From Candidatus Bathyarchaeota archaeon (GTDB taxonomy: Archaea > Thermoproteota > Bathyarchaeia > Bathyarchaeales > Bathycorpusculaceae), in assembly GCA_963775685.1 (NCBI GenBank), contig CAVZJV010000001.1:44945-108944 (forward strand): a stretch of 64,000 nucleotides of DNA, given 5' to 3'. The notes under the pieces are model-generated. The model searched no databases. It saw nothing but the letters and a program-made list of their open reading frames with translations, and was not told the origin of the DNA. Numbering within the stretch: the stretch's first letter is position 1; the number at the start of each line of letters is the position of its first letter. The position numbers and the translations under genes were made by a program. Of the stretch, positions 13,153 through 49,250 are shown piece by piece.

Positions 13153-13156
13153 TTGT

Positions 13157-24412: not shown

Positions 24413-24879
24413 CGTTAACCTAAGTTATGTTACTCTCTGATCTATTTGATGTTTCTTCTCCACAGAACAGTGCGAATTTCTGACATGGTCCTTTGTTAGT
24501 TTAAAGAAGTAGGTTTTGCAGTAGAGAAAAAACCCGTTAAATGAATTATAGTTGCACACTTGTTGCATTGAATTATCACTTCATCCAGACTCTGTGTTTT
24601 GACCTTTATCTCCAAAATTGATTATCCTTCTTCGGCGCAGTCATCGGGGATATTCTATTTCCACATTCTGGACATAGAAATGCTCCTTCTCCATCTATTG
24701 AGTTAAGTCCAATACATGCGATTGGACTCATTCCATTTGTTGTCCGCATATATAGTTAGAGTTTTCAAAATCGTTCATGTTTAAGATCTTATTAATTGGT
24801 TTTTCCATTTTGCGCTAAATTCTTCCCAAATTGTTGCCTAATTCGAAAAAAAGATCATTAAAAAGAGAAAGTTGGTGGA

Positions 24880-30965: not shown

Positions 30966-31006
30966 TAGTAGAAGAAAAAACTTGAAAAAATCGCGGTTCT
31001 TCTTCC
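30966..31006 (-). repeat. REP-like palindrome copy
   Basis: plus strand GTAGAAGAA-aaaacttgaaaaaatcgcgg-TTCTTCTTCC; reverse orientation relative to the 40795 copy. Confidence 0.7.
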
Positions 31007-31055
31007 AACCAAACATTATCTATGGGTATACACGAAAAATCAGAATTTCGCTAAA

Positions 31056-31097
31056 GAGCTGGGATGGGAGTTGAACCTGTATATCTGGTCTGCAGTC
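31056..31097 (-). pseudogene. degenerate 3' fragment of tRNA-Cys(GCA)
   Basis: minus strand GACTGCAGACCAGATATACAGGTTCAACTCCCATCCCAGCTC contains an anticodon loop, T-loop and acceptor 3' strand; 5' half absent. Confidence 0.5.
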
Positions 31098-31109
31098 TGT
31101 AAGGGAGAT

Positions 31110-31505
31110 CTATTGGATGCTCTCTAATGTGGAAGCGTTTGTTGTAGGTGTTATCTTTTTGATTAATCGGGCATCTTCTGTTATTAATCTAAGATCTTTT
31201 ACTTTAGCAAAATAAGCATATGAAGCGTCGTAAAAAGTAATCTTGAGTTTTATTGCTGTATCCAATATTTCCTCTTCGCTCCCCGCTACTTCTATTAGGT
31301 CCATTAAGTTTAGGATATGATTGATTGTTTTCTCCATCATTTTTGCTTCTTGCTCTGAAACTTTAGCATGTAAGACACAGTCTTTCCAAATGATGTTTCC
31401 CAATTCATATCTTGCTAACTCTATCGTGTAGTTTCCAGCCAAAAACTCGATTTTGTTTTCTTTAACGGCTCTAAAAATGGCTGATGAATCAAAAAGAAAC
31501 TTCAT
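31110..31505 (-). CDS. vapC: VapC PIN-domain toxin
   Basis: FLFDSSAI, ELGN, ITFYDASY and LITED motifs. Confidence 0.9.
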   Translation of the reverse strand: MKFLFDSSAIFRAVKENKIEFLAGNYTIELARYELGNIIWKDCVLHAKVSEQEAKMMEKTINHILNLMDLIEVAGSEEEILDTAIKLKITFYDASYAYFAKVKDLRLITEDARLIKKITPTTNASTLESIQ

Positions 31506-31735
31506 CGGCTGTCCCGGTCTTTTCTAATGCTTTTCACGATGTCTTCGACACTGACCTTATCAAGTATTGGCTTTAGCTTGTCTATCTCTACTTTTAGCTC
31601 TTCCATTTCTCTTTTCTTTACTTCATCTTCAAGGGCTTTTCGCAAAATCTTGGATGGCTTGATTTTGAATTTCTGAATTTTTTCTTTAAGTTGCTTGGGG
31701 ATTTTTGTAGAGACGGTTGCGGATTGCTGTACCAA
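31502..31735 (-). CDS. VapB/CcdA-like RHH antitoxin
   Basis: TVSTKIPKQLKEK..ILRKALEDEV..IRKDRDSR; ATGA overlap with vapC. Confidence 0.85.
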   Translation of the reverse strand: MVQQSATVSTKIPKQLKEKIQKFKIKPSKILRKALEDEVKKREMEELKVEIDKLKPILDKVSVEDIVKSIRKDRDSR

Positions 31736-31885
31736 ATTACTCTCACCAAAAATTACTACTTTAAAGTAAGATAAAATAGTTTCCATAGAGTGTAAGAAAA
31801 TTATTAATCATCTGTCGAACAGAGGTGAGAGTTGAGCTCATTAGTCCTATCCCAGAGTAGAAATTTCGCTCAGTGAAATTAACAA

Positions 31886-31927
31886 AAGAACAACAACAAA
31901 CTGGAATTTTGGCGTGTTGTTGTTCTT
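31886..31927. repeat. palindrome related to the REP-like family
   Basis: AAGAACAACAACA-aactggaattttggcg-TGTTGTTGTTCTT. Confidence 0.6.
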
Positions 31928-32053
31928 CCGATAAAAACAGGTTTATTTTTAGGTCTATCGAGCCGCAGCTTTAAGAAAATATTTTTGTTGTTCTGGTCCT
32001 CATTTTGTCTACACAACACATATATGATTTCTTAATATTCTTGCAATCACCTG

Positions 32054-32689
32054 GTGGCCGAATTGGAAAGCAATCAACAAGTCGTAAAAAAAACCATACT
32101 TAGCAAAAAATTAATCGCAATAATTATAGTGGCGGTTATAGCAATTGCAACAGTCGCCTCTACTACGGCGATTTTAACGACAGGCAACAAATCACCCAAT
32201 AGCCAAATTAACACGGAGAATAGTTTGACAGATAACCAGAATAGCCCGGAATCTTGGATCAAAAAGGGAGCTTATGCAACCTATGCAGGCCAAGCTGAAA
32301 TCTTATCTTTGAGCATCGCCTTTAGCGCGAGAATAGAAATAGTTGATTTCAACCAAACTCACCTGCAAATATCCACCGACTACATCATGTCGACATCTTT
32401 CGGTGCAACAGAAAACACAACCACGATCTGGGTGAGCAGAGAAGACATGAATTTCCAACCAGAAGACCTACCACTAAACAACACGTACACTACACAAATA
32501 ACCATACCGAACCTTGGAACAAGAACCTGCACCGTTTACGAATATAGCAACGAAGGAATCAGCGCAGCCTACTATGTGGACAACAGCGTCCAATGGCCAA
32601 TCAAAATGGTAATGACCTCGCCAGCAGTTGAAGGACAAACCTACAACATGGATATAAACCTGGTAGATACAAACATACCCGGCCTCTAA
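32054..32689 (+). CDS. membrane-anchored secreted hypothetical protein
   Basis: N-terminal TM helix; beta-rich body ending LVDTNIPGL. Confidence 0.7.
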   Translation: MAELESNQQVVKKTILSKKLIAIIIVAVIAIATVASTTAILTTGNKSPNSQINTENSLTDNQNSPESWIKKGAYATYAGQAEILSLSIAFSARIEIVDFNQTHLQISTDYIMSTSFGATENTTTIWVSREDMNFQPEDLPLNNTYTTQITIPNLGTRTCTVYEYSNEGISAAYYVDNSVQWPIKMVMTSPAVEGQTYNMDINLVDTNIPGL

Positions 32690-33642
32690 TAATTGCCGGC
32701 TATCAAATTTGTCTGGGTAATGGGTATTTGCTTAAATGAGCTTTAATTTGTCTTCTTTTTATCTCCTTAAAATCTTTGCGTCGGAGCAAAATTTTTGTGT
32801 ACCAAATTGCATTTTGTATTAAAGAACTTCTTCTGAGAGCAAGAACTTCCATTACTGAGAGGTAGCATGCAAGTGTGTGTTTTTATTTTTTGTTCTTGTT
32901 GAGAGAGTAACATAGAGAGTTGGGTTTGGGGATTAAATCTTAATCTTTTTCCCTTTCGTAACTTCCTAACTACTTAACTTCTCTCCACTCCTATCTACTC
33001 CTCTTCTCACAAAATACAAAACCTAAACCTAAAAAAATAAAACTCACACACAAAGACTATATGAATAATATCAGTTGAATAATATCAGTCAGTCATCTTG
33101 TTTATTCGAGATAGTCAAAGTTCTTTTTTAGATTTTTATTTTAGAATTTGACATATTTCTTTATTGTTCGAACATTTGTTCTATGGAAAAATGACATAAA
33201 AATTCAGCAATTTCCCAAGTTCATAAAGTATGTCGATTGTCTGTTCCCTAACTTTAATTGTGCCGTTGTTTTAAATTTCAAAATTAAAATGTGCTATGGC
33301 ATTCTTAATTTTCGATTTGCCTCATTGTTAAATAATTCAAAACCAAGTTCTTTCAAGAACGCTTCTTTAATCAGAGCATACCAATGTCTGAAATGGCTTC
33401 AAAATAACGTGCAAATCTATTTTCGAATGAATTATAAAGGTCATATCCCAGCAAAACAAGCAAAAAACACACATAATTCATACCGTTGGAAAATCCTCCT
33501 TCTACAAGAGGCAAGTAAAATATCAGTTAAGAGAAAAGGGTATTGGCATTTCTTTCTATTGATAAAATATATGTACCGAATTTCGTTCGAATAGAGTTTT
33601 CTGGTAAAAGCGGAGCTTCTTAGAAGTAATAGAGTGACCCGT

Positions 33643-33990
33643 TTAGTCGCTGTTTCTCTCTTGAAGTTTCCTTGCTTCTCTTTGAATCTGTTCTAGAGCA
33701 TATGCAATTAGTAAGCATAGACCGTTGTTTCCCACAAGCATTTCGCTGTCTTTTAATGAAGTAGCCATATCGTAAAAAATATTCTCAATTTCTTCTTCTG
33801 CATCGGGTTGCAACTTTAGTAATGATAAGTCAAGGTGTGTTTCTGCAAAAGGAAATTTCTCTTGCAGCTCTCGAAGTATTGTTCTTTGTTCGCATAACTG
33901 CCTGGTTTCTTTTATCGGCATACCTTTTCCTTTGTCAACGAGCATGTTCAAATTAAAAGTCAAATAGGTCAATAGGCTGATTTTTACCAT
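33643..33990 (-). CDS. hypothetical protein, possibly a fragment
   Basis: ORF only. Confidence 0.35.
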   Translation of the reverse strand: MVKISLLTYLTFNLNMLVDKGKGMPIKETRQLCEQRTILRELQEKFPFAETHLDLSLLKLQPDAEEEIENIFYDMATSLKDSEMLVGNNGLCLLIAYALEQIQREARKLQERNSD

Positions 33991-34428
33991 GTATTGAACC
34001 TCATAGCAGTGTCATTCGAATCGATTATTAGTTTTTCTATCTTTGCTTTAGCACGAAGAATCTAAAAAATTAAGCTTCGGTTTTTCGTCCTTCAAAACTA
34101 ACTTGTAACATTCACATTTAGGTTTAGTACATACTCTATCTAAAAAATATGAATGTTCACTTTTAAGATGTCCGCACGTGCACATTTCATCTTTAATTTT
34201 AGCTTTTTCCATCAAGATTTCTCTGTGTTAAATAAACAACTTTAGCCTTGAAAAGGTTTTAGGTGTGGTTCTAATTAAATTTTGGTGCACACACACAATT
34301 TTTATTATATTTTTTTCAATAACCTATAAACCGCTAATTGCAAATAAACATTTATGGTGATAACGCTAAAATGGGTAAATAATCTTATGTTACTTTGTAT
34401 TATGTGAAGTAATGTGAGGGCTGCTTCG

Positions 34429-34665
34429 ATGGTGAAAAATGTAATCGATTTAAATGAAAGGGACAGCCGAGTAATCAACATAGTTAAGGCAAAGTATGGG
34501 CTCAAAGATAAAAGCCAAGCTTTAAGCATAATTATCCAGCATTATGAAAAGTGTGAACTTGAACCCCCGCTTAGACCCGCGTTTGAGAAGGAAATAGAGG
34601 AAACCGTTAAGAACGGCAAATTTGTCAAAGTTAAGAATTTCGCGGAAGACTACGGGCTAAAGTGA
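34429..34665 (+). CDS. DUF2683-family antitoxin, copy 1
   Basis: NIVKAKYGLKDKSQAL..ELEPPLRP; near-identical to 44347-44583. Confidence 0.75.
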   Translation: MVKNVIDLNERDSRVINIVKAKYGLKDKSQALSIIIQHYEKCELEPPLRPAFEKEIEETVKNGKFVKVKNFAEDYGLK

Positions 34666-34700
34666 TTGCTTGTGCAGCCTTGAAATTGAGGAAGAAAGAA

Positions 34701-35099
34701 ATGACAAAAGAAGATATTTACAAAGACTATGGCAAGTTCAGCGGTGTCAAAAGTAGGTCAAAAACCAAAACACAAAAACCTCCAAAGAAACTAAACCAGT
34801 GTTCCAAATGCGGCAGAGTAGGCGACGAAATGACTAAACACTCCCTCACAGGTGAACATAAGCCACCTTTCATATGGCTGTGCAGGCAACCATGCCACGA
34901 CGAAGTGCACAAGTTCGGCCTAAAAATGACAAAAGAACAAAAAGCAGCACTAAAGCGGCAGCCACCCTGCAGCATACAATTTCCCACAGAAAACAACATA
35001 GCCAATCCTTATACAAAACTGATTGAGCCTGAATCGCTGGAGGGGGAAAAATTCAAGCAGTCTTTCAAGCGAATAAATTCTGAAAATGAAGAAACGTAA
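34701..35099 (+). CDS. HNH-like Zn-binding protein
   Basis: CSKC..KH..LCRQPCHDEVH pattern. Confidence 0.5.
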   Translation: MTKEDIYKDYGKFSGVKSRSKTKTQKPPKKLNQCSKCGRVGDEMTKHSLTGEHKPPFIWLCRQPCHDEVHKFGLKMTKEQKAALKRQPPCSIQFPTENNIANPYTKLIEPESLEGEKFKQSFKRINSENEET

Positions 35100-35104
35100 T
35101 ACTC

Positions 35105-35170
35105 GAGAACAAACTGTAGAAGAAGAATAAATCGTGTTTTTTCCAAGCAGCACATGTTTTTTTTCTTTCA
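35105..35170 (+). repeat. REP-like repeat copy (degenerate right arm)
   Basis: GAGAACAAACTGTAGAAGAAGAA matches 45869-45891 GAGAACAAACTATAGAAGAAGAA. Confidence 0.6.
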
Positions 35171-35420
35171 AACTTCAGCATTGCAGTACTCTCAAGAGAA
35201 GAAGAACAACATTTGAAAAATATTGCAGATTAAAGCGTTTTTCTATCGATTGCATGCAATGTTGCAGCAACCAACAATTGGTTAACTGATAGAAGAAGAA
35301 ACGTAATAGATATGGATACAGGTTTAACCCTGCTTTCGATGGGGTTAAAGAGTTATAATTAATGAACAGTTGAAAACTGGCTGCTAACTTTTTTCTATCA
35401 GTTCATCCTTGCGTTTGTGT

Positions 35421-37306
35421 TTATGGTTGTTTGATGGTGAGGATGCGTCCATAGTTGCTGTGGACGTTGATTATTCGTGTTTCGCTTTGGGCTATGTTGC
35501 CTATGTCTTGGTATCCAGGAAGTTCATCGATGTAGTTGCCTGCAAAATCGAAGGTGAATGGCACGTTTTGTTCTTGGTCGCTAAAGTTTAATGCTATCAG
35601 GCTAAAGTTTTGGCCGTCGACACGGTGGAAAATAAGGATTCCTTTTTTTGTAGGTTGGCTTGGTCGTCATGGAAATAAGCTTCTCCTTGTCTTATTTGGG
35701 GGTTTTTTCTGCGGATTTTAATAAGGTTTCTGACGAGACCGACTGTTGATTTGCCGATCTGATCGTAGAAGTAGTCCCAGCGTACTGGTCGGAAAAGAAG
35801 CACACGTCCCATTGATGCGGTGTCTGAGGGGTTTGGCAGGTAATAGTTTTCTGCGAATTCTTGGCCTTGCCAAAGCAGTGGAATCCCTTTAGCCATGAGC
35901 ATCCCGATTAGGTATGGTTGCAGTTTATAGAATAAGCTTCTGTTTCCCTGCCAAATTAGCGGATCTCCCTCTACATTGCTGAAGTTGCAGATGAATCGTG
36001 AGTGGTCATGATTTTCAAAGTATTGGAGCGCAGTCTTTTTCAGAGTGTCTCCGTTGGTGGTTTGTACTCTTGGGAATTGGTCAAGGCAAAACATGAAGCC
36101 CAAATTTGTAAGTTCGTTCATGTTTCCTTTGGCGATTTTTTCGCCTGCGTTAAGGGTTTTGTCTTGCCAGGTTGTGTTTGAGTAGCTCTCTGTTAGAATT
36201 CCTTTTGGATCGTTTAGTTGTTCGGCACATTGGATAAGATTGATTTTTTCGTTATTGTAGAATCGTTGCCAATCTGGGTCATCTTTCTTTGATTTTATTA
36301 GTTGATACGTTTGGTACGTAAGTGCCGCATATTTATTTCCGGTGGGGCCATCCCAAAAATTAGGGACATTATCGTAGCGGAATCCATCTATGTGGAATTG
36401 TTTGAGCCATTGGTAGTTGACTGTGTAGAAGAAATTTTGTGTGAATGCTTTGTCGTAATTGGGAGTTTTTCCGTATTCATCGGTGCCTTTTATGAAGGGG
36501 TTGTCTTGGTACTGTAGAGCATCGTAAATGTAGAAGTAGGCAAAGTCGGCGGCTGTGTGGGCGTATACTGAGTCAACGATAACTGCTATTCCATGTTGGT
36601 GCGCTGCATCGATGAGTTTTTGCATATCTTTTCTGTTTCCAAAGCGTTCGTCCACGCCAAAGTAGCCGATGGGTAAGTAGCCCCAATCTATTGTTGCTGC
36701 AACATTGGATAGAGGCATTAGCTCTATGCAGTTTATCCCTAAGTCTGCTAAGTAATCTAATCTGGCTATGGTTTGATCGACGCTTCCGCCAAATTCGTTA
36801 ATCATTAACTCATAAATTATTAGGTCTTCTAGATCTGGCGTTTTCCAGGTGGCTTCGCTTGGACTCCATTGGTATGGCTTGTAGCCTAAGGTTATGGCTG
36901 AGAGTTTGCCTATGCCAAATTCACTGGCGCAGGGGTCGATAATCCAATCTAGCAGTTTTTGGGGGTATTTGCTTTCGTCTAGGTTTGGGTTTTCCAAACA
37001 GTATCGGTAGACGTATCGTCCATTGGTTCCCCAGACTGAATCTGGTGTAGGTTTAGCAATTGACGGTATGTCTAGACTTGTTGACCAGTAATCACCATAA
37101 TCCGGATCTGTTGAATGATCCAATTCAAATTTGAGAGGCTGGATATTTTGAAGAAACTGATCTTTCTCGTGGATAATTTTGACGAAAAGCTTGTTGCCGT
37201 CAACGGCTGATATCCATGGTAAAAAGATTCCAAAATTAACGGTTCCTATTGGTCCTTCACGAGCACCTAGTTTAGTTAATGGCAGAAGTTTCAAAAGAAT
37301 CCCCAT
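35421..37306 (-). CDS. GH13 alpha-amylase family (branching enzyme/TreZ-like), frameshift near 35645
   Basis: IIYELMI, GINCIELMP, WGYLP, DSVYAH, IDGFRYD, ENHDH and GIPLLWQGQE motifs; C-terminal beta domain in a second frame. Confidence 0.85.
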
Positions 37307-37365
37307 AAGCTAAATGGTAATTCTAGTTTTTTAACACTCCTACGTTAGGAAGATTAAGAAAAAGG

Positions 37366-37410
37366 GAAGCTGTTGTTTACCTTGAAATTTCACATAGAAC
37401 AGCTACTTCT
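37366..37410 (+). repeat. REP-like palindrome variant
   Basis: GAAGCTGTT-gtttaccttGAAATTTCAcatag-AACAGCTACTTC. Confidence 0.55.
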
Positions 37411-37656
37411 AAGATTATGTTTTTTTTAGCTTTCTCCTTTTAAATGCATAGGTTGCAGGCGATTTTTCTTAAAATTGTGGGACACAAAGAAGTGTCAAAA
37501 GATAGAATTCGAAAAGCTGAGCATGTTAACTACTGCACATAATGGTAGGTTCTAAACGTGGGTAAGTTATCGGTTCTCTATTGTAAGCGATGTAATTGTT
37601 TTTATTCTCAGAGCTTCATAGGGGTAATTTGGAAACAGAAGGAGTTGAAATGAAGA

Positions 37657-38646: not shown

Positions 38647-38700
38647 CGAATATTCACTTTTTTATTAGCCCAAGAACCTTTTTAGTTTAGAAGCTAATTT

Positions 38701-40191: not shown

Positions 40192-40794
40192 CCTCTGTTT
40201 AATCCCTATTGAATACTGGCTTTATTTGTTACTATAAAATTGTTAAATAATTTCAGCCGAAAGTTAACGTTCCAAACTATTCGCCTCATCTTTTTCTCGG
40301 TTTTTTGATTACAAAGCTATGTATGATGCGGTACAGGTTAGTACGAATATAAATTCCCAAGGCAATGGGGCTATTTTTTGGGGGCTTTTGTTCTAAAAAT
40401 GGTGCCGATCCTTTGTCTGTTATTGTTGCGGTTCGTAAAGAAGGAAGCCATCTGTAGGTGGTGCAGATTGAACGCCGTTTGGGGGAGAACTGGATAAGGC
40501 TTGGGTAAAGGGGGTATCTAATCATTTGCAGGCTAAAAATGAATTTGTGCTTAGCCAAGAAAAATTGAAAGATTCAGTTAAACGTGGAGTACTTCTAACG
40601 TTACGAGATACATTTGGTAAGAATGCCTTGTCTATTCCAAATAAGTTTACCCAACTTGTTGAAAGCGTTTATAAATAAGTTTTTTCTCCGGACTTAAAAA
40701 AAGACTAACTTGCTTCGTGGGTTTAAGACCGCAGCACAACCACCTCTCCCACGCTTCAAATATTTTAGAAGAAACAAACACTTCTCGCCTAACA

Positions 40795-40845
40795 GAAGTA
40801 GAAGTAGACCAGAAAATATTTCACTGTTCTTCTACTACCCATAAA
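40795..40845 (+). repeat. REP-like palindrome, reference copy
   Basis: GAAGTAGAAGTAGACCAGAAAATATTTCACTGTTCTTCTACTACCCATAAA. Confidence 0.85.
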
Positions 40846-40951
40846 GACCTCTCTTTGGGGTGGGTAAATCAACAACTTACGTTTTTCCAAACTAATCATT
40901 TCAAATTTATTAGTAAGTTTGTATCTGTTTATCATTAGTTCGGTGGGTTTG

Positions 40952-41188
40952 ATGGCTAAACCTGCGTATTTAGATGAGGACGACCTTAAACTTCTTTTTG
41001 AAACTAAACAAAAGTTAGATGAAGCTACCAAACTGATGGGTGAACTTATGGAAACCATTGATGTTTTAAATGATCCTGAAATGATGAAAGCCCTCAATCA
41101 AGGACAAGAGGACATTAAAGCTGGCAGAATCAAAGATTTGTGGTCGCTTCTAAAGGATGAGAAAGCGATGAAAACAAAGAACTCTTGA
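40952..41188 (+). CDS. orphan antitoxin-like protein (Phd/YefM C-terminal-like)
   Basis: ELMETIDVLNDPEMMKALNQGQEDIKAGR; no toxin gene follows. Confidence 0.65.
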   Translation: MAKPAYLDEDDLKLLFETKQKLDEATKLMGELMETIDVLNDPEMMKALNQGQEDIKAGRIKDLWSLLKDEKAMKTKNS

Positions 41189-41327
41189 GTTTATTTTGAA
41201 AGATGACACTGTTGTGTAAAATTGGTTTGCTTCATTATACCATCATGATTATCTCTTTGGCCAAGTCTCCTTTTTTTGAATGTAAAAGGGGTAAGGCTTA
41301 AGAATTTCGAAAACGCTATGCAATCAT

Positions 41328-41531
41328 ATGCTACGCTATAGAGTTATAATAGAAAAAGATGAAGATGGCATGCTTGTCGCTAAAGTTCCTGACTTGCCTG
41401 GTTGTGCTACCGAGGGAAAAACAAGAGTGGAACTTATGAAAAATGTCAAGGAAGCGATACAGGCGTACATTGAGGCGTTAAAGGAACATGGTGAGCCAGT
41501 TCCTATTGAAACGGTGCAAGTTAGTGTCTAA
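41328..41531 (+). CDS. hicB: HicB antitoxin
   Basis: YRVIIEKDEDG..VPDLPGCATEGKT..NVKEAI. Confidence 0.9.
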   Translation: MLRYRVIIEKDEDGMLVAKVPDLPGCATEGKTRVELMKNVKEAIQAYIEALKEHGEPVPIETVQVSV

Positions 41532-41781
41532 ACTAAAGACGCTTGATTATGATGTTGTATTAAAGGCTCTCGTAAAAATCGGCTATGTTGTTAATAATCA
41601 GAGGGGTAGCCACATCGTTATGCGATTTGTAGACAAACAAAAGTACATTACTTTATTTGGCTGTAGAAATAACGAGGTTATGGTGGTTATCCCTGCCCAT
41701 AAACCTCTGGGAAAAGGTATGTTACGTACCATTATCAGGGAAATTGACCTCTCAGTTGAGGAATTCAACGAGTTTCTTTGA
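41524..41781 (+). CDS. hicA: HicA mRNA interferase toxin
   Basis: QRGSH, VIPAHKPLGKGMLRTIIRE. Confidence 0.88.
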   Translation: MSKLKTLDYDVVLKALVKIGYVVNNQRGSHIVMRFVDKQKYITLFGCRNNEVMVVIPAHKPLGKGMLRTIIREIDLSVEEFNEFL

Positions 41782-41887
41782 AATCTTATTCAATGGAATT
41801 GAATTATGAGGGCTCCTATCGGTTTGGGGTTAAGCGGAGGGAATCTAGTTTGTTTCTGTTAATTAGAATAATCTGGGATTAGACTGA

Positions 41888-41937
41888 AAGTAGAAGTAGA
41901 CCAGAAATTTTTTCACTGTTCTTCTACTACCCATAAA
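41888..41937 (+). repeat. REP-like palindrome copy
   Basis: AAGTAGAAGTAGACCAGAAATTTTTTCACTGTTCTTCTACTACCCATAAA, 2 mismatches to the 40795 copy. Confidence 0.85.
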
Positions 41938-42165
41938 AACACCCATCTGTGGTTGGCGGTTGATTGCTGCCCATTAAAGTTGGATAAAGAAAAACTCACA
42001 ATAAAAAGTTGCGTTTTAATTGATGTTGTGGGGATTCGAACCTCTACTCGATAGAGATGTCACCGCTTGTCTTCTTTTTTTATTTGAATTACTAACTTTC
42101 TGAAGATGTGGAGAGATAGATAGAAAAAAAGTTGTAACTGGATTTAGTTTCTTTTGAAGAACAAT

Positions 42166-42771
42166 CTATCTTGTGATTTCTTTCTCTATCTTTTCAAATA
42201 GTTCTACAAAAGTCTGTTCCGGCTGAGCACCTACAATTGTATATTCATCATTTATAATAAACGTAGGAACACCAGTAATGTTGCGTTTTTTTGCTTCAGC
42301 ACAGTTATTTGCATATGTTTTTTGGAGCAAGGGGTCTTCCAACGCATTTTCAACATCCTTTTTTGTTAAGCCAATTTTCTTTGCTAAATCTATGATGACC
42401 TCGTCATTTCCGATGTCCAGGCAGTCTTCAAAGTAGGCTTTGAATATTGTATCAGTAAATTCTTCATTTTTGCCCATTATCCGTGAATATTCACCCACTA
42501 TAAGAGGTCGTCTTGAATTAGGCATCACCATAACATCACAAAAGTTCAAACCGTACTCTCTGCCTCTATTTCTCAAATGTTCTTACATTTCATTTGTTTG
42601 AGAAATGTATTTTCTTAAATCGACGCCGCAGATGGGCGTTTCTGGATGAATTTCAATTCCAACGTGTTCAAGCTCAATATCAAACTGATTTTTGAGTTTA
42701 TCAATAATAGCTTTGCCAAGGTAACAAAAGGGGCAAATGTAATCTGAAAACATTCTAATTTTTATCTTCAT
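42166..42771 (-). pseudogene. DsbA/FrnE-family oxidoreductase with in-frame TAA at 42583-42585
   Basis: SDYICPFCY, then ...NEM*EHLRNRG...ITGVPTFII.. GAQP in the same frame. Confidence 0.8.
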
Positions 42772-42779
42772 TAAATCGC

Positions 42780-43592
42780 CTATTGACTGTCTGGTTTTTT
42801 TCCTTCTTCTGTTTGCTTAGGTAACGAGTGCGCTTCTGTTGAAAAAGCACCGACGGTTTTAATCAGTTTTAGTCCTCTTTGAGTTATGACGTAGTCTCCT
42901 TTGGATGCTTCTTGCGCCATCAGATTTGCATCAATAAGCTTCTTTAGATGAAATGCTAAGTGGCCTGCCTTTAGATCTACTGTTCTGGACAATTCTGAGA
43001 AGCTTCGTTTTCCTTCGCTAACTGAAAATAGAATCTTGAGCCGTGAATGGTTTGAGAGCGGTTCAAACAGTGAATCAATGAGAAATTGAGTGTCAATGAC
43101 TTCAGGGTTCTTGGTTTTGTTACTGCCTTCAACTAATACAATTTCATGGTAGGCTCTTTTTTCACGCTTTAGCTTCTTATCAAAGTTGGAGAAACAGTTT
43201 CCGCATTGCTGACCTTTGGTCTTTTCAACCATTAACTCGTTTTCAGCTATTTTATCATCTAAGTCTGCAAGAGCTTCTTTTGTTCCAGATTGTTTGATAA
43301 CTTGTGTGTTTTCCTCTATTGTGTTTTTGTAATGCTCAAGGCATTTGTTTCTGTTTTGGCAATCTTCTTTGAGCAACGTTGCAATGTCTTGATTTAGAGA
43401 TTGCGACCTGTGGCCAGCATAGACCGATAGGTGATTTTGTATAAGAGTATCTTCAATTGCACGAAGACGTTCCTTCAAAACGGTTTCTTCTACCCTGTTC
43501 ATGTCTGTTCTTAAGCCTTTAATCTCCATCTTCAACTCAGCGATTGCACCAATTATGTAATCGTATGATGAATCCTTGCCTGTGTGAGTCAA
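42780..43592 (-). CDS. ArsR-like wHTH regulator with Cys-containing N-terminal domain
   Basis: PLSNHSRLKIL..SFSELS..GHLAFHLKKL..YVITQRG. Confidence 0.8.
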   Translation of the reverse strand: MTHTGKDSSYDYIIGAIAELKMEIKGLRTDMNRVEETVLKERLRAIEDTLIQNHLSVYAGHRSQSLNQDIATLLKEDCQNRNKCLEHYKNTIEENTQVIKQSGTKEALADLDDKIAENELMVEKTKGQQCGNCFSNFDKKLKREKRAYHEIVLVEGSNKTKNPEVIDTQFLIDSLFEPLSNHSRLKILFSVSEGKRSFSELSRTVDLKAGHLAFHLKKLIDANLMAQEASKGDYVITQRGLKLIKTVGAFSTEAHSLPKQTEEGKKPDSQ

Positions 43593-43688
43593 ATACTGTG
43601 CTTCCCTTTCATTTGCTGAGTATATTCTACTTCCCTAAAAGTATATTAGAGTTTTGCAGTTATGCTTACATTATAGGATGTGTGAATT

Positions 43689-44087
43689 TTGGTTAGTATC
43701 CCTAAAGATGTAATGGATGTTTTAAATGCAAGTGATTCAGCGAAAATGATAGCAACTATCGACGATAAAGGCATTCCAAACGTAGTTCCATTATGGTTTG
43801 TAGTAGTAGACCCTGAAACTATTGTGTTCGCAGAAGTTTTCATCAAGAAGACAAAAGAAAACCTTGAAAAAAACAAGCAAGTTGCTCTTGCAGTGTTCAA
43901 AGGACCAATGACAGGCTACCAACTAAAGGGAACATTCAGTGGTTTCCAAACAAGTGGCCCAATTTTCGATGACTTCGCAAAGAAGAGCATGGAAACTATG
44001 AAAATAAAAATAAAAAGTGTTGGCATAATAAAAGTCACTGAAGTCTTCTCTGCTTCGCCAGGACAAGGCAGCAAAAAACTAGCATAA
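43689..44087 (+). CDS. pyridoxamine 5'-phosphate oxidase-like FMN-binding protein
   Basis: IATIDDKGIPNVVP, KTKENLEKN, GYQLKG. Confidence 0.85.
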   Translation: MVSIPKDVMDVLNASDSAKMIATIDDKGIPNVVPLWFVVVDPETIVFAEVFIKKTKENLEKNKQVALAVFKGPMTGYQLKGTFSGFQTSGPIFDDFAKKSMETMKIKIKSVGIIKVTEVFSASPGQGSKKLA

Positions 44088-44346
44088 CCTTGTCAAATGC
44101 GGACTTACTTTCTTTCCCAGTTTTTTATCCTGGAAAACAAATTCCTTTGATTCAAATCTAAGCGTTTAAGATTGGCTTATGGGCAGCAGTTGCAGTTGTT
44201 GGTGTTGAGCCATTTTTTGTGCCACTTAAAGTGTGCACTCGGAGTAAGAATGTTTTATTGAATTAATTCAATCACTCGGATTGTTGGTATGCCCTAAATT
44301 ATCTTGTGTTACTTTGTGTTATGTGAGGTAATTGGAGGCTGCTTTA

Positions 44347-44583
44347 ATGGTGAAAAATGTTATCGATTTAAACGAAAGGGACAGCCGAGTAATCAACATA
44401 GTTAAGGCAAAGTATGGGCTTAAAGATAAAAGCCAAGCTTTAAGCATAATTATCCAGCATTATGAAAAGTGTGAGCTTGAACCTCAGCTTAGACCCGAGT
44501 TTGTGAAGGAAATAGCGGACACCGTTAAGAGGGGTAAATTTGTCAAGGTTAAGGATTTCGCGGAAGAGTATGGACTAAAGTGA
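44347..44583 (+). CDS. DUF2683-family antitoxin, copy 2
   Basis: near-identical to 34429-34665. Confidence 0.75.
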   Translation: MVKNVIDLNERDSRVINIVKAKYGLKDKSQALSIIIQHYEKCELEPQLRPEFVKEIADTVKRGKFVKVKDFAEEYGLK

Positions 44584-44605
44584 TTGCTTGAATAGTCTTG
44601 AAATC

Positions 44606-44642
44606 GAGGAAGAGGTTTCTAAAACTTTTCACAACCTGCTTC
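44606..44642 (+). repeat. REP-like palindrome variant overlapping a possible RelE start
   Basis: GAGGAAGAGG-tttctAAAACTTTTCACaa-CCTGCTTC. Confidence 0.45.
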
Positions 44643-44667
44643 AGTTAGCTTACCCAAGACCCTCCAT

Positions 44668-45180
44668 TTACATTTTGTCTATTAATTCCATTATCTTAGC
44701 GTAGGTTTCCACATTGCAGCGCCAACCTAAAGAAATCATATCCTTAACAGCCCCTTTAGCTTGCTCTTTTAACAGTAGCCCTTCAAAAACCGCCCGTGCC
44801 AAAATGTAGGGTGTGCCCACATAGCTGATTTTGTATATTTTAGCGGTTTTTCTTGCTACTTCATCATCAATAACCGCCAATCCTTTATGCTCTTTGGCAA
44901 GCGCTAAAACCTCTGCGTCGGCGGCATGAAGCCCCTGTGTCTTGGACAATTGTGAAAGGAACAGTTTGTCTTTGGGTTTGTAAAGTTCAAAAACTCCGTT
45001 TTCGAAGAGTTTTTCTAGCGCAATTGCATCTGGAACTCCTTTTTGTTTGCCTTTATCTACAACTTCAGTTTTCACCAGTAGAGAGGTCAACTTTTTCTCT
45101 TGAAGGTTTTCAATAATTCCGCTTAACCCTACTTTGGATAGATATATTAAAGGGGTGGAATTGAAAACTAACGGTTTCAA
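44668..45180 (-). CDS. DUF3368 PIN-domain toxin
   Basis: VFNSTPLIYL, ADAEVLALA, VIDDEVAR and GTPYIL motifs. Confidence 0.85.
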   Translation of the reverse strand: MKPLVFNSTPLIYLSKVGLSGIIENLQEKKLTSLLVKTEVVDKGKQKGVPDAIALEKLFENGVFELYKPKDKLFLSQLSKTQGLHAADAEVLALAKEHKGLAVIDDEVARKTAKIYKISYVGTPYILARAVFEGLLLKEQAKGAVKDMISLGWRCNVETYAKIMELIDKM

Positions 45181-45497
45181 TTTTGTTCCGCCGCTGATGC
45201 TGATGTAAATTCGTTCTCGACTTCTTCTGGATCAAACCTGACCCATTCAACGTTATGTTGTTTTAATAGATCTGCAAATTCCCAAAGAGAGAGTTTTGCA
45301 ATGTCTGCTGCTTGGGCAAAAGTGACTTTGCCTTTACTTAAGAGTTCTAAGGCGGTTTGCTTTCGCCATTCGGTTATGCCTGTTTGAAGAAGATTTCGGA
45401 CAACTGTTGCTTTATCAAGTTTTTCTTTTTTTATGATTTCAGAAATTTCTTTATCTAATTCAGCTGGGACGCGAACTGCTAATGGTTTGAGTGTCAA
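45177..45497 (-). CDS. UPF0175 family antitoxin
   Basis: AVRVP..KATVVR..GKVTFAQAADIAKLSLWEF. Confidence 0.85.
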   Translation of the reverse strand: MTLKPLAVRVPAELDKEISEIIKKEKLDKATVVRNLLQTGITEWRKQTALELLSKGKVTFAQAADIAKLSLWEFADLLKQHNVEWVRFDPEEVENEFTSASAAEQN

Positions 45498-45546
45498 ACA
45501 CCTGTCACCGTATACAATAGATGCCATTTGCATACATAAGTATTTT

Positions 45547-45560
45547 GCATAAAATTATGC
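45547..45560. promoter_or_regulatory. palindromic operator candidate upstream of the UPF0175-DUF3368 operon
   Basis: GCATAA-AA-TTATGC. Confidence 0.35.
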
Positions 45561-45715
45561 GATAACACGTAATTTTCTCTTTAAACTCTGTCTACATTTT
45601 TTATTAAAAATAGGTGTTAAGAGTAAAGAAGTTGTCTCAAAAAAGCTTAATCACATAGTTTTATCAAAAGTATGTGGTTAGCCACTAAAATAATTTTCAA
45701 AGCCCACTTTTAATT

Positions 45716-45760
45716 GAAAGAAGAAGTAGACCAGAAAATATTTCACTGTTCTTCTACTAC
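45716..45760 (+). repeat. REP-like palindrome copy
   Basis: GAAAGAAGAAGTAGACCAGAAAATATTTCACTGTTCTTCTACTAC. Confidence 0.85.
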
Positions 45761-45868
45761 CTCTATAAGCTTAGAAAATTTGGCTGGTTAAAAGAAGACA
45801 GTAACCCCGTTTGGCAATCGAGCGTACCTGATAGGCTTACATATAGAAAGTCTGTTCATTCAGAACTT

Positions 45869-45919
45869 GAGAACAAACTATAGAAGAAGAACGGAGTGTC
45901 AAGAAAAAATTCACTGTCT
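45869..45919 (+). repeat. REP-like repeat copy (partial)
   Basis: GAGAACAAACTATAGAAGAAGAAC..AAAAAATTCACTGTC. Confidence 0.6.
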
Positions 45920-46134
45920 AAGATGGGTAGTAGTCGTCTGGCAAGCTCTATAGACGACTACTTCTAATGTTTGCCGATGTTGAAAAAGCGTGATTTCCTG
46001 CGGCAAGTATTTTTTCTTCTTTTTTCAACTTTAAGCAAATTTACTATTGGATTCACCAGATAATGGGTAAACGAGATGTAAGGGCTTTTTCTGGATGGAC
46101 CTCCGATAAGCCGTATGATATCGGCGGTACAAAA

Positions 46135-46923
46135 ATGAGTGAAGTAGTCGTTGGGTTGGATGTTCACCTGAAGAATACTCAGGTGACAGTTATGAAGAAT
46201 GACTTAATTGGAGAAATAGTGAAAAAAGAAAGAGTAGGAACTAACAAAGCTGAACTGCAGAAGTCTTTAGCATCCGTTCCTAAAGGCAGTAAGGTAGCTT
46301 TGGAATCGGTTGGTTCCTGTTGGCCATGGATTGATTTTCTAGAAGAGCTTGGATACGAAGTATTGCTTGCTAATCCAGTGAAAGTGAAGCTGCGAGCGGA
46401 AGATATTAAGAATGATAAGGTAGATAGTAGGACGTTGGCTGAATTGGTTAGGGTGAACTGGTTGCCAACATGTTACATACCGCCAGCTGAGCTTCGTTGG
46501 CTGCGTAGTCTATTGCGTCATAGATCTTATCGAACGAGACTTTCTACCAGTGTTAAAAATAGAAGCAAATCTGAGTTTAGAAAGCGAGATATCCAGTTGG
46601 ATGTTAATCTTGGAACTATTAAAGGAAGGAAAGCGGCTGGTATGCTTGATGTTTTTGAGGTTAATCAGAATATTGAACTGCTTGACTTGATTGTAAGACA
46701 AAACAAGGAAGTGGAAAAGCAGCTTTTGAAAAAGTATGGAAAGATCAAGCCTGTTGAGTTATTGACGTCTATTCCCGAGATTGGGGGTCATCTTGCATGT
46801 GTTTATAGGGACGCTTTTAAAAGGAAAGGGAAGGGTGCTGACGCGATTAAGGTTGTTGCGCGTAAGTTAGTAAATGTGGTTTGGGCTGTTTGGATGTATG
46901 AGAAAGAGTTCATGGTAAAGTAG
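46135..46923 (+). pseudogene. IS110 DEDD recombinase lacking most of the C-terminal Tnp domain
   Basis: GLDVH, ALES, LANP and KNDKVD (DEDD) present; SIPEIG is joined directly to GHL..VARKL and the RF..YAGL.P..SG segment is missing. Confidence 0.85.
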
Positions 46924-46924
46924 G

Positions 46925-47050
46925 ACAAACAACAGGGGATGTCTTCTGTCTTCTTCTGCGGTTTGACCGCTTTCGGGTAGAGTGGAGTGTTCCTTTGTTG
47001 TTGGCTGAAGCCGATGTGCGACTTGGTTCGCTGATAGGAGAATGCTGTCT
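46925..47050 (+). ncRNA. predicted bridge/seek RNA of the IS110 element
   Basis: outer stem AACAACAGGGGA/TTCCTTTGTTGTT encloses guides TCTTCTTCT (46949-57) and GTAG (46977-80) around a GCGGT/ACCGC stem; second loop has CGACT (47019-23) and ATAGGAG (47034-40) around a TTCG hairpin. Confidence 0.8.
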
Positions 47051-47154
47051 GAAATACAGGTTTGAGTAAAAGGATTTAAGAAAGAAATGAGGTGAGATGG
47101 TTAGGTAGTCGGGGTCTGTTTAGAGCTGGCCTTCGTCTGGTCTTCTTACATAGG

Positions 47155-47202
47155 AGAAGAAGAAGCGTAATTTTTTCATTCTTCTTCTTTTGACGCTGAT
47201 CT
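47155..47202 (+). repeat. REP-like palindrome copy (IS110 target)
   Basis: AGAAGAAGAAGCGTAATTTTTTCATTCTTCTTCTTTTGACGCTGATCT. Confidence 0.8.
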
Positions 47203-47250
47203 TAATGTGCATAGCTTGCCTTTATAGAAGTTTAGGTGTTCGGTTTACGG

Positions 47251-48753
47251 TTAATTTGTGGTGGTTGTGAAGGTCTTCTTGTCTTTCTTGCATAGTTCAT
47301 GCACAAGGTCTCTTCCCATTAGGCAAACTGTACTGATTCCAAATGTTCCTCCAGCCCATTGTCCAACCATGTAAAAATTCTGCAATCCAGGTAATGTTTT
47401 GCTAACACCCTTCTTATTTATTTCTTTAGCTAGTTCTTTAGGTGGCGGCCAAGGCTGAGCAAATCCACGATAACCGCCCGTCCAATGCTCCACAGAAACC
47501 GGTGTTACAACATCGAAAGCTTCGATTTGTTTTGTGAATCCAGGAAAACGCTTCTCTAATCTCGTAGCAACCATATCCGCTAACTGTTGCTTGTGTTCTC
47601 TGTAATGTTCTTGATTTGCTGATAGTTTTTTCCAATACTCATAGTTCGAGTCAAAATTAATTTTGATAACACATTTGCCAACTGGTGCTAATGATTGATC
47701 AAAGTTTAATATTTCAATGTCGAGTCTATCTTTTTCTTTTTCCTCTACAGTTATTGGTTGGTCCAAAAAGAGCACCATTGCATGGGGTTCGTTCGAAAAA
47801 CTTCTGTTAACTCCATACCAAATCTCAAGCCCAAAAGGTTGAGTCTTGGGACATGAATTGTAGTAAGAGTGGATGAGTTTATTAGAATATTTTTCTTTTA
47901 GCATTCCAAATATTGTTGAATAGCCATCAGCTGCCGAAATTACTAAGTCTGCAAAATGTTCCGATCCATCTTCAAGCACAATTCCTTTCGCTACGTCGTT
48001 TTCAATGATTATCTTCTTTACTTTTGAATTATAGCGTACTTCTCCACCGAGTTCTTTGTAGCGTTTCTCAATGTTGCGTGAAAGAGCTGCTGAACCTCCG
48101 ATTGGCCATCCTGCGTCAGCTATACTTAACATCGAGAGAAAAATTATGGGCACTATTGTAGGTACTTCTTCTATATCGTATTGAATTGTGGAGAATGCTT
48201 TTTTTAGAAATGGATCTGTGAATTTTTGGGCGTATTCTTTTAAATTAATTTTTCCATACTTCATAAAGAAACTCATTAGTGGCAGAATTTTCAGTTTTCC
48301 GCCTACACCGCCAAACATTGCGCCAAATACATCTTGACCGCTGAATTTCCGAATTGCTTTTGTGAATTCTTCGATTAGTCTTGTATCGGCTGGTGAGAGT
48401 TCTTTCATGTGTTTTTCCAGTTTTTCGATATCTGAGTAGACTGTGAAAGCTTTTCCGTTTACGTCTTCAACTTGGACAAATTCATTAAAAGCGTAGGCGT
48501 TGGTTCCTTTTAGTGCTCCAAGTTCTTGCCATATTTTATTGTATAAGGTTCCTGTTGGTTTGGGGGAAACACCAAAGACGTTGTGAACTGCATAATCAAA
48601 ATGGTAATCATTGCGTTTCCATGAAACACAGACGCCGCCGGGTTTGTTTTGCATTTCGCAGATTTGGGTTTTATATCCGTTCATTTGGCTGTAGCAGCCA
48701 GTGGATAAGCCGGCTAAGCCACCGCCTATAATTATTATGGATTTTTCTGCCAT
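47251..48753 (-). CDS. phytoene desaturase-like FAD-dependent oxidoreductase
   Basis: IIGGGLAGL, PGG, GGEVRYNSKV, DVVTP and FYMVGQW motifs. Confidence 0.88.
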   Translation of the reverse strand: MAEKSIIIIGGGLAGLSTGCYSQMNGYKTQICEMQNKPGGVCVSWKRNDYHFDYAVHNVFGVSPKPTGTLYNKIWQELGALKGTNAYAFNEFVQVEDVNGKAFTVYSDIEKLEKHMKELSPADTRLIEEFTKAIRKFSGQDVFGAMFGGVGGKLKILPLMSFFMKYGKINLKEYAQKFTDPFLKKAFSTIQYDIEEVPTIVPIIFLSMLSIADAGWPIGGSAALSRNIEKRYKELGGEVRYNSKVKKIIIENDVAKGIVLEDGSEHFADLVISAADGYSTIFGMLKEKYSNKLIHSYYNSCPKTQPFGLEIWYGVNRSFSNEPHAMVLFLDQPITVEEKEKDRLDIEILNFDQSLAPVGKCVIKINFDSNYEYWKKLSANQEHYREHKQQLADMVATRLEKRFPGFTKQIEAFDVVTPVSVEHWTGGYRGFAQPWPPPKELAKEINKKGVSKTLPGLQNFYMVGQWAGGTFGISTVCLMGRDLVHELCKKDKKTFTTTTN

Positions 48754-48869
48754 TGAAGTCCACCCAGAACATTATTGCTAATTACAAAAGTCGCAATTAA
48801 ACTTTAACAAAAAGGGAACCTTAGCTCAATAACTTGTTACATTGTTTGAATTTTACATTTTTTAATTTG

Positions 48870-48914
48870 GAAGTAGTTGTCGAAGCTGAAAATTTCAACT
48901 AGACTGCTACTTCT
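48870..48914 (+). repeat. REP-like palindrome variant
   Basis: GAAGTAGTTGTC-gaagctgAAAATTTCAacta-GACTGCTACTTC. Confidence 0.65.
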
Positions 48915-48932
48915 CTTTATTTGAAGAACTTT

Positions 48933-49250
48933 TTACTGATTACCTTTGCAATGTGTTTCAAAATGACTTGTTAACGAGCAGAAGAAGACTAAATTTTTCA
49001 ATCTTCTTCTTCTTTTGACACCTGATCTATTGGCGCACATATTTATTTTAGCAAAGTCAAGGTAGAAGTTGTTGTTCACCTGAAATTTCAATCTTTCTGG
49101 GGCAAACTTTTCACGGTATTTCGCGTAAGCCCTTTTGCGGGCAAACAACCAAATGGAAACGTTGCTGAAGGATATTCCTTCAACTTTGATTTCTTCTTGA
49201 TTATTGTAATCTTCAAAGAGAATCTTGTAATCTAGTTTGGGGTAAGACAT
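48933..49250 (-). pseudogene. truncated hypothetical gene reading into the repeat
   Basis: plausible N-terminus MSYPKLDYKILFED; the C-terminus is translated repeat sequence. Confidence 0.35.
48976..49028 (+). repeat. REP-like palindrome copy
   Basis: GAGCAGAAGAAGACTAAATTTTTCAATCTTCTTCTTCTTTTGACACCTGATCT, sharing the tail of the 47155 copy. Confidence 0.8.

Follow-up and report, generated by a model that had tools for sequence, protein, structure and literature searches.

The stretch analyzed here (the window; 64,000 nucleotides, contig C1:44945-108944) belongs to the 3.06-Mb genome of a soil archaeon (14 contigs, 96.9% complete) and carries, beyond approximately 30 kb, a family of short palindromic hairpins that punctuate a region of small accessory genes; an earlier reading of the same DNA (the original prediction) had compared these hairpins to bacterial repetitive extragenic palindromic (REP) repeats and to their clusters, known as bacterial interspersed mosaic elements (BIMEs). 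Below, G000 is the genome analyzed, G001 is a sister species, and other G numbers are relatives; C designates a contig and L an extracted locus. Positions 1-21000 of the window encode core genes, including a class-I tRNA synthetase, a CdvA-like division protein, and a thiamine pyrophosphate (TPP) riboswitch with a thiamine transporter; CdvA occurs in Thermoproteota and fits an archaeon of the TACK (Thaumarchaeota, Aigarchaeota, Crenarchaeota and Korarchaeota) type. From approximately 30 kb onward the GC content drops from 0.41-0.48 to 0.35-0.40, and the genes annotated with Pfam are small and accessory: a PIN/CcdA-like pair, HicAB, two DUF2683 genes, UPF0175/DUF3368, and a split DsbA, together with an amylase, a pyridoxal phosphate (PLP) decarboxylase, a flavin adenine dinucleotide (FAD) oxidoreductase, and one transposase of the IS110 family of insertion sequences (ISs).

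Each site listed in the original prediction was tested by RNA folding (z-score), with an ungapped hairpin/stem finder, and with a covariance model (R1) of the family; eight of the eleven elements listed as related are hairpins of one family, that at 35105 is doubtful, and those at 44606 and 45869 are not hairpins. Folding and the stem finder together give clear hairpins at the sites listed as 31886, 37366, 40795, 41888, 47155, 48870, and 48976, and weaker ones at 30966 and 45716. All eight family members are on the plus strand. The first (30968-31005) is a weak type-1 hairpin with 7-bp arms (fold, finder, R1 26-32 bits) that has an orthologous hairpin in G001; the second (37364-37408; fold, finder, R1 31.5 bits), also with an orthologous copy in G001, has variant but compensated arms (AGCTGTT/AACAGCT). 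Two type-A hairpins follow, each with a conserved 3' flank: 40797-40838 (40797-40864 with the flank; R1 47.3 bits) and 41889-41930 (41889-41956 with the flank; R1 47.5 bits), that is, the left and right direct repeats of the HicAB cassette. A type-A2 hairpin (45719-45760; R1 45.8 bits) with an extended 3' flank (45716-45807) is the first part of an element of ~170 nt, the second part of which was located at 46015-46063 (+) by comparison with G001. The last three are a type-1 hairpin at 47152-47193 (fold, R1 45.6 bits), in which an IS is inserted at the foot of the 5' arm (vide infra); a hairpin at 48869-48914 (fold, finder, R1 38.0 bits) with the compensated variant arms GTAGTTGTC/GACTGCTAC; and a type-1 hairpin at 48977-49015 (fold, profile, R1 43.0 bits) that has its 3' flank in common with 47152. 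These R1 scores are partly high by construction, because all eight hairpins are among the 17 sequences from which the model was built. The 'more distant palindrome' at 31886 (31886-31927, +) is a perfect hairpin (fold z -3.7; 21 bits, E 0.028) but of a second type, with a 13-bp AACAACAAC-type stem, a conserved AACTGGAATTTTGGCG loop, and a CCGAT tail; its relatives in the same genome are at C14:554175, 566095, and 2296146.

The remaining sites are weaker or fail. At 35105-35168 (+) a (GAA)n stretch resembles a 5' arm and scores 23.9 bits with R1 (E 0.006), but gives no stable hairpin (z -0.3), and we regard it as a doubtful or degenerate copy; it has a 23-nt direct repeat in common with 45869, a site that has no R1 match (z +2.2) and that lies within a 207-nt nested repeat with a hairpin of its own at ~45927-45964. 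The site at 44606 (z +0.35) likewise has no R1 match, nor does 24464-24486, and the latter, proposed as a degenerate inverted copy, is not confirmed as a hairpin. The loop is asymmetric and conserved, as had been claimed for an AAAWTTTTCA core, but loops vary and the literal consensus is unduly stringent, with one occurrence in the region and three in the window, compared to 2.8 expected. As stated in the original prediction, the elements of the window lie essentially between genes, the exception being 48977, which overlaps a 105-aa open reading frame (ORF) with no family match; the intervals range from 105 to 5480 nt, in agreement with the reported lack of CRISPR-like regular spacing.

The family was searched first with an nhmmer profile of the copies, which already detected additional members outside the window, and then with R1, which was built from 17 ungapped type-1 copies. 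An initial MAFFT/RNAalifold consensus contained only five pairs, with register slippage, and was replaced by an ungapped alignment and a manual structure with a 13-pair helix. In this 17-sequence alignment 75.9% of the cells pair, and eight of the 13 pairs are changed on both sides (14 cells), a level attained in none of 500 shuffles. For 140 model-aligned matches from 57 loci of relatives, nine of 12 pairs covary (48 cells; again 0/500 shuffles), with the reservation that this alignment (130 distinct rows) was fitted to the model and includes near-palindromes on both strands. The arms being triplet repeats, pairing remains nearly as high (81% and 89% in the two alignments) when one partner is slid by +3. 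Independent arm variants are fully compensated (GTAGTAGAACAAT/ATTGTTCAACTAC, AGTAGTCGA/TCGACTACT, AGCTGTT/AACAGCT, and AACAACAACA/TGTTGTTGTT), and the claim of co-varying arms is upheld.

The triplet-repeat arms and their tolerance of the +3 register might be taken to mean that there is no real family, that is, that low-complexity (GAA)n/(TTC)n microsatellites have fallen by chance into inverted pairs. We consider this artefact very improbable: arms that are not (GAA)n are fully compensated, conservation extends to the asymmetric loop motif, the flanks, and the linkers, E-values as low as 1e-8 are obtained with the model genome-wide, the distribution is limited to one genus, and IS copies carry matching guide segments (vide infra). 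A generic hairpin scan was too unspecific to be useful (1624 hairpins with at least nine pairs, 337 of them with purine- or pyrimidine-rich arms), although it brought out additional (GAA)n hairpins with other loops. The hairpins match no Rfam family at the gathering score; the only matches of the window to Rfam 15 are a tRNA and the TPP riboswitch.

The anatomy was determined from 88 distinct hairpins (from 17 sites in G000 and 75 sites in relatives). The unit is ~40 nt: a purine-rich 5' arm, mostly (GAA)n, an asymmetric loop with an A-run and a T-run, and a (TTC)n 3' arm; the stem has a median of 12 bp (range 6-24) and the loop a median of 16 nt (range 8-25). The most common form is (T)AGAAGAAGAAG, a loop GCAAA-T(n)-CCAA/TCAA, and CTTCTTCTTCT; the palindrome is often prolonged by flanks rich in stop codons (TTAACTGAA and TTCAGTTAA). 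The second type has AACAACAACA arms with the loop and tail described for 31886, and a third has GTAGTAGTCGA-type arms. Among internal mismatches, G·T/T·G outnumber A·C/C·A by 22 to 6 with strand-symmetric scoring, although this excess may be inflated because the strand was chosen by a model that rewards G-U pairs. Since the strand with the purine arm first tolerates G·T, a single-stranded form of that strand (DNA or RNA) is probably what matters.

Mosaics of two to four hairpins, drawn from two or three arm types and connected by conserved linkers, are frequent; their units are mostly in direct orientation. Pairs of type 1 and type 2 are found at C14:554175/554237, at C14:2210180, and in G001; the composites T2-T1-T2'-T1' and T2-T1-T3 (~250-300 nt) recur at several unrelated loci of G010 and G023, and composites of three or four hairpins align at nine loci in two groups. 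The BIME-like clustering that had been proposed is borne out, with different unit types in a recurring order and conserved linkers.

The hairpins are not confined to the window; the family is dispersed and lineage-restricted. The genome contains ~24 distinct loci at E<=1 (17 are the training set; E-values down to 1e-8), eight of them in one 18-kb part of the window (0.6% of the genome). R1 matches are found in 12 of 41 genomes, namely G000 and 11 of 24 congeneric species, with none in 16 genomes of other genera of the order. G000, G001, G010, G012, and G023 have 15-19 matches each (both strands counted) and the others 0-3; some complete, single-contig genomes have none. The hairpins concentrate in flexible islands of low GC content that are rich in toxin-antitoxin and defence genes. 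A second cluster in G000 (C14:554-566 kb) is located amid PIN/MazE and ABC-3C defence genes and is of mixed orientation; a candidate ABC-3C-type defence module in this cluster (C14:560650-565922) consists of an MC2 middle component, an SMC-like ATPase, and a DEAD/Helicase_C_2 helicase. In contrast to this cluster, orientation is uniform in the window island (plus), in the syntenic G001 island (at least 13 matches, all plus), and in an island of G023 on C4 (four matches, all minus). The hairpin-rich islands start beside a paralogous gene for a PQQ_2 beta-propeller/Ig-like, probably surface, protein of 820-900 aa (window 26449-29251; C14:548389-551055; G001 contig C1, L023 9801-12434; G023 contig C4, L050 3693-6383). 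At one further locus (C14:748736) the search for orthologues returned mainly paralogous gene families, and the locus with its hairpin is kept in G007 only.

Gene context was assigned for 92 sites with naive ORFs of at least 90 aa. The hairpins lie between convergent genes at 27 sites, between tandem genes at 17 sites in each of the two directions, and between divergent genes at 16; 14 are inside an ORF and one is unclassifiable. Two of the 14 'inside' ORFs have 220 and 366 aa; the remaining twelve are short (91-155 aa) and possibly spurious. Convergent pairs are somewhat favored, but the hairpins are tied neither to the 3' ends of genes nor to the direction of the neighboring gene.

These contexts bear on the possibility that the hairpins act in RNA, as transcript-end modules (bidirectional terminators, mRNA 3'-end stabilisers, or insulators) that are carried by cassettes and are repetitive through reuse of a design. 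Such modules would account for the T-runs in the loop and the TTTT that often follows the 3' arm, for stop codons (TAACTGA-type) in both flanks, for a strand that tolerates G·T pairs, for convergent pairs as the most common context (27 of 77 classifiable sites), and for copies that persist at orthologous sites despite flanks of only 76-82% identity. However, 16 of the 77 classifiable sites and four of the eight window hairpins are between divergent starts, the upstream gene has the direction of the hairpin nearly as in a coin toss (44 same vs 33 opposite), and one hairpin orientation is maintained across an island with genes in both directions. Linkers and flanks conserved over ~170-300 nt, with near-identical copies at unrelated loci, are also unexpected of terminators, and archaeal termination is not known to depend on hairpins. 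We judge this explanation unlikely, though it is the strongest competitor to a role in DNA. A promoter or operator reading was rejected on inspection: the hairpin-to-start-codon distance is not fixed (82 to 290 nt), nor is the sequence of the arms.

Comparison with sister genomes places the hairpins at the borders of structural differences. The blocks common to the window and the G001 island are 76-94% identical. Between the hairpins at 30968 and 31886 the window contains an 880-nt PIN/CcdA-like toxin-antitoxin cassette (31006-31885, -; both Pfam matches below the curated cut-off); according to blastn, the orthologous hairpins in G001 are ~30 nt apart, with no cassette. The HicAB cassette (a small ORF, HicB, and HicA; 40865-41888, +; Pfam and blastn) is flanked by hairpins 40797 and 41889, which with their 3' flank are 86% identical over 69 nt; the corresponding site in G001 has a single type-A hairpin and no cassette. 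The type-A2 element of ~170 nt is uninterrupted at two loci of G001, but in the window is split by the 207-nt nested repeat (45808-46014, +), of which three copies are found in the G001 island; by eye, this repeat opens with a shortened stretch similar to the right end of the IS (GGCAATCG...CTTACATA).

Differences between other genome pairs are also bordered by hairpins. The locus C14:2035049 has two hairpins in G000 and four in G012; a 118-nt difference between these genomes ends inside two hairpins, and a 3.1-kb difference begins ~25 nt past the next one, with synteny to G023 and G010 beginning at the hairpin that borders the 3.1-kb difference. Orthologous loci on C6 of G010 and C14 of G023 differ by exactly one type-2 hairpin, and one hairpin-level indel, checked for a duplication of the type made by miniature inverted-repeat transposable elements (MITEs), is flanked by CTGGAA/CTCGAA. 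Because differences between sister genomes start or end at or inside hairpins, we regard the hairpins as seams of structural variation.

One hairpin of the window is also the target of a mobile element. A defective IS1111/IS110-type element (46071-47159, +) abuts the 5' arm of hairpin 47152 with its right end. Its transposase ORF (46063-46923; probable gene start 46135) is the only IS110-family gene in the genome. Compared to an intact copy in G023 (331 aa; DEDD_Tnp_IS110 and Transposase_20 domains), the transposase begins at residue 25 and has an in-frame loss of ~67 aa that removes the Transposase_20 domain, so only the DEDD domain is kept; judged by its sequence, the copy is defective. Relatives that are 70-83% identical are encoded by G023, G005, G064, G074, and G059. 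Every copy has a left end that is very short and, downstream of the gene, a conserved non-coding stretch of ~230 nt (window 46924-47150), the layout that excerpts of PMC11187229 give for IS1111. No Rfam match of relevance was found in 45600-47300 at E<=1.

In the subfamily of the window element, all four copies have the same right end, which is then followed by four different loops and (TTC)n 3' arms; each copy must therefore sit against the 5' arm of a different hairpin, in a fixed position and orientation at the arm foot. The left flanks of these copies end in GTAGAAG, TTGAAAG, TTAAAAG, and, for the window copy, GGGTAA; TAGAAGAAG is found at a fifth copy, which lies at a contig end. Since loop and 3' arm differ at each of the four, the hairpins are not the ends of the IS; no parent IS with hairpin-like ends was found, and the ends of the IS1111-type element itself differ from the hairpin.

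The downstream regions of seven copies from two subfamilies (window 46924-47150, L048 4293-4520, and others) align with two short variable segments amid conserved sequence. In all seven, segment 1 repeats the left flank of its own copy across the junction and segment 2 is the complement of its own right flank. Examples of segment 1 are GTAGAAGA, TTGAAAGA, and GGGTA in the window subfamily and CTTGGTCAAGA, GTCAAGAT, and AGTCAAGAT in a sister subfamily; for segment 2, TCTTCTTC is paired with the right flank GAAGAAGA, and AAAGTTT, AAGGTTT, and AACTTT with the right flanks AAACTTT, AAACCTT, and AAAGTTT. The segments and the flanks thus differ copy by copy in a correlated way; this is the prediction for a guide of the seekRNA or bridge-RNA type, so we infer that the region encodes a guide RNA. 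In excerpts of PMC11187229, IS1111 seekRNAs have the same two-segment arrangement, and their targets include REPs (ISPa11) and integron attC sites (ISKpn4 and ISPst6). The foot of the hairpin 5' arm (...AAG|AAGAAG...) is apparently a programmed target of the IS, specified by the predicted guide RNA encoded downstream of the transposase.

The sister IS subfamily (72-75% identical; L028, L029, L031, and L049 in G064, G074, and G059) has as its target another small hairpin, GAAAsTTTGAC ... GTCAAG; since this hairpin is different, other congeners appear to carry other hairpin families that R1 does not detect. As the propagator of the hairpins the IS was rejected: G000 has one defective copy, and a search with the window transposase (E<=1e-10) found none in the hairpin-rich genomes G010 and G012.

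The original prediction had connected a GTAG at the hairpin foot to REP-associated tyrosine transposases (RAYTs), which are HUH nucleases. This part of the analogy fails, both because no Y1 transposase or RAYT was found and because of the position of the GTAG. No matches to PF01797 (Y1_Tnp) were found in G000, G001, G010, or G012 (control genomes were positive), and those in G023 and G011 are stop-interrupted fragments only; in G000, neither was a TnpB zinc-ribbon found. GTAG is near the foot in 37 of the 88 distinct hairpins and is there base-paired with CTAC within the stem; in GTAG-REPs, as described in excerpts of PMC3733652, a terminal GTAG (or CGTC) tag is unpaired and conserved in >90% of the members.

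Other enzymes fare no better as partners of the hairpins. Searches of the local proteins of unassigned family against NCBIfam identified no recombinase and no nuclease. Two convergent tyrosine recombinases (475/480 aa, 66% identical) are encoded beside the second cluster (C14:568180-571145). Their family is present in 46 of 61 congeners (E<=1e-10), is multi-copy, and is independent of hairpin content: hairpin-rich G010 has no copy and G016 has eight copies without hairpins, so we rejected these recombinases as the cognate enzyme. Because the family is multi-copy across the genus and often at contig ends, it likely is the integrase of an uncharacterised mobile element.

A further explanation assigns the hairpins to integron-like cassette arrays, as structure-specific sites analogous to attC that are served in trans by a recombinase other than the integron integrase, possibly an RNA-guided DEDD enzyme. 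Orientation is uniform within the arrays of three islands; hairpins delimit toxin-antitoxin units of cassette size that some species have and others lack; one of the strands seems to be the folding one; the hairpins are of variable sequence but conserved shape; and, like attC sites (PMC11187229, in excerpt), the hairpins are targeted by an IS1111-type element. However, the best match to the integron integrase model (TIGR02249) in G000, G001, G010, G012, and G023 is 45 bits, compared to a cut-off of 265; inspection of the hairpin feet, which are (G)TAGAAG/CTTCT(AC) or AAAAG/CTTTT, revealed no R''/R' boxes (RYYYAAC...GTTRRRY); and the hairpins are irregularly spaced (0.1-9.5 kb), the intervals containing several genes, which are on both strands. 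Moreover, the C14 cluster is of mixed orientation, the neighboring tyrosine recombinases do not track the hairpins, the lack of IS110-family matches in G010 and G012 with the window transposase as query (E<=1e-10) counts against this explanation as well, and published archaeal integrons (PMC9668308) have canonical attC sites and IntI. Sites of this kind are improbable in our assessment, and we hold it just as doubtful that the hairpins are the attC equivalents of an unrecognised archaeal system for cassette exchange, catalyzed either by another enzyme or by a DEDD recombinase of the IS1111/IS110 type that is RNA-guided and acts in trans. Were it true, this would be a gene-capture platform that resembles an integron but lacks IntI, in which single-strand hairpins bound toxin-antitoxin, defence, and enzyme modules that are excised and re-inserted in one orientation.

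We favor, with a probability of roughly 0.6, the interpretation that the hairpins of this TACK-type archaeon are structured palindromic repeats, REP/BIME-like and restricted to the genus, which fold on one strand, form mosaics, delimit cassettes, and provide a landing site for an IS. On this interpretation the hairpins would act mainly at the level of DNA, as recombination-prone seams and landing pads; small cassettes would be shuffled by recombination (homologous, slipped, or site-specific) between similarly oriented copies, and the hairpins might persist and spread by hitch-hiking with the cassettes or via an enzyme other than RAYT. Several points weigh against it, in addition to the transcript-end modules, the naive gene calls behind the contexts, and the possible inflation of the G·T excess. 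Deletion between direct repeats of a larger ancestor, in place of insertion, might explain all of the cassette differences, and the crossover points are not resolvable in the genome pairs compared. The copy number is low (~24 per genome, compared to >100 typical for REPs). No clean empty site was found for the IS; a region on C17 of G010 matches the copy on C7 of G023 only from ~20 nt beyond the hairpin onward and lacks a hairpin upstream. Finally, no mobilising enzyme was found, so mobility is deduced only from the patchiness of the distribution, from nearly identical copies at separate loci, and from indels at the hairpin level.

The comparison with known systems shows how far the REP-like interpretation holds: dispersed, lineage-restricted extragenic palindromes in BIME-like groups that are IS targets are retained, and the RAYT/HUH link is not; the REP/BIME analogy is functionally apt although the RAYT/HUH interpretation is wrong. 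REP/BIME repeats as landing pads for ISs are textbook knowledge for Proteobacteria; to our knowledge, repeats of this type are poorly documented in Archaea. As in the bacterial systems (PMC3733652 and PMC2817692), the hairpins are short extragenic stem-loops with compensated stem variants and G·T pairs, form mosaics of unit types with conserved linkers, are patchy among close relatives, and are targets of IS110/IS1111-type elements. In contrast to bacterial REPs, which number in the hundreds, they have A/T-rich (GAA)n arms and conserved loops of ~16 nt, carry GTAG inside the stem and only in a minority, have no RAYT, and are not depleted between divergent genes; their uniform orientation inside islands differs from the alternating units of E. 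coli BIMEs. Judged from titles, abstracts, and passages, the papers returned by full-text searches contained no description of such repeats in Bathyarchaeia-like or other TACK archaea.

The IS resembles the IS1111 elements with seekRNAs (ISPa11 in P. aeruginosa REPs and ISKpn4/ISPst6 in attC; PMC11187229, in excerpt) in its DEDD and Transposase_20 domains (~331 aa), its long downstream non-coding region, its two segments that match the two sides of the target, its fixed position and orientation in a hairpin, and a natural retargeting between subfamilies that are 72-75% identical; it differs in its archaeal host, in its targets (the foot of a (GAA)n arm, and a GTCAAG-type hairpin in the sister subfamily), and in that the window copy lacks the C-terminal domain. 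Integron attC arrays and the clusters of attC sites lacking integron-integrases (CALINs), including those of archaeal integrons (PMC9668308, in excerpt), likewise have folded, single-strand, variable sites between cassettes, one orientation per array, toxin-antitoxin cassettes, and arrays without a nearby integrase; the hairpins differ by the lack of R/L boxes, by the absence of IntI from the five genomes searched, by irregular multi-gene intervals, and by single copies elsewhere. The palindrome-associated transposable elements (PATEs) of haloarchaea are likewise small palindromic repeats that encode no protein and lie in the intergenic DNA of archaea. They derive from ends of the IS200/IS605 type; by contrast, neither Y1 transposase nor TnpB was found in G000.

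The locus thus combines structured repeats, mosaics, hairpin-bounded cassette differences, and an IS that is aimed at a hairpin via a putative guide, with no RAYT found; because the whole syndrome is present without RAYT, the same genome architecture may arise by another route. The seven IS copies, with at least five left-flank specificities, provide a natural guide-target set for an archaeal IS1111-like recombinase, so its target rules are testable. The hairpins would also explain breaks in the assemblies and rearrangements of this genus in these islands.

Further features were noted in the accessory region. A unit of ~320-370 nt, consisting of a DUF2683 gene and its upstream region, is duplicated at 34376-34695 and 44271-44640 (~91% identity); it is found at another place in the G001 island, where one copy has lost the gene and kept the upstream region and the downstream gene. 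The DsbA-like gene is in two ORFs on the minus strand (136 aa, 42166-42576; 62 aa, 42583-42771) and, as its G001 orthologue is a single ORF of 227 aa, is probably a pseudogene; in the G001 island, the adh_short and DUF72 genes are likewise split. A T-arm-like GGTTCGAATCC motif at ~42000-42060 (-) is absent from G001; the stretch has no counterpart in the tRNA-Lys at 21772 or elsewhere in the genome, so an att remnant is not demonstrable.

Outside the hairpin region, a 345-aa ORF at 23375-24412 is similar to surface adhesins in NCBIfam, below the cut-off. The TPP riboswitch (13143-13256, -; 55.2 bits, gathering score 54.3) is located at the 5' end of the Thia_YuaJ thiamine-transporter ORF (12616-13206); since the called start overlaps the riboswitch, the true start probably is further downstream. 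The CdvA-like protein (637 aa; 19051-20964, -) has a long, internally repetitive, low-complexity C-terminal region that is the source of most of the direct-repeat families in the window.

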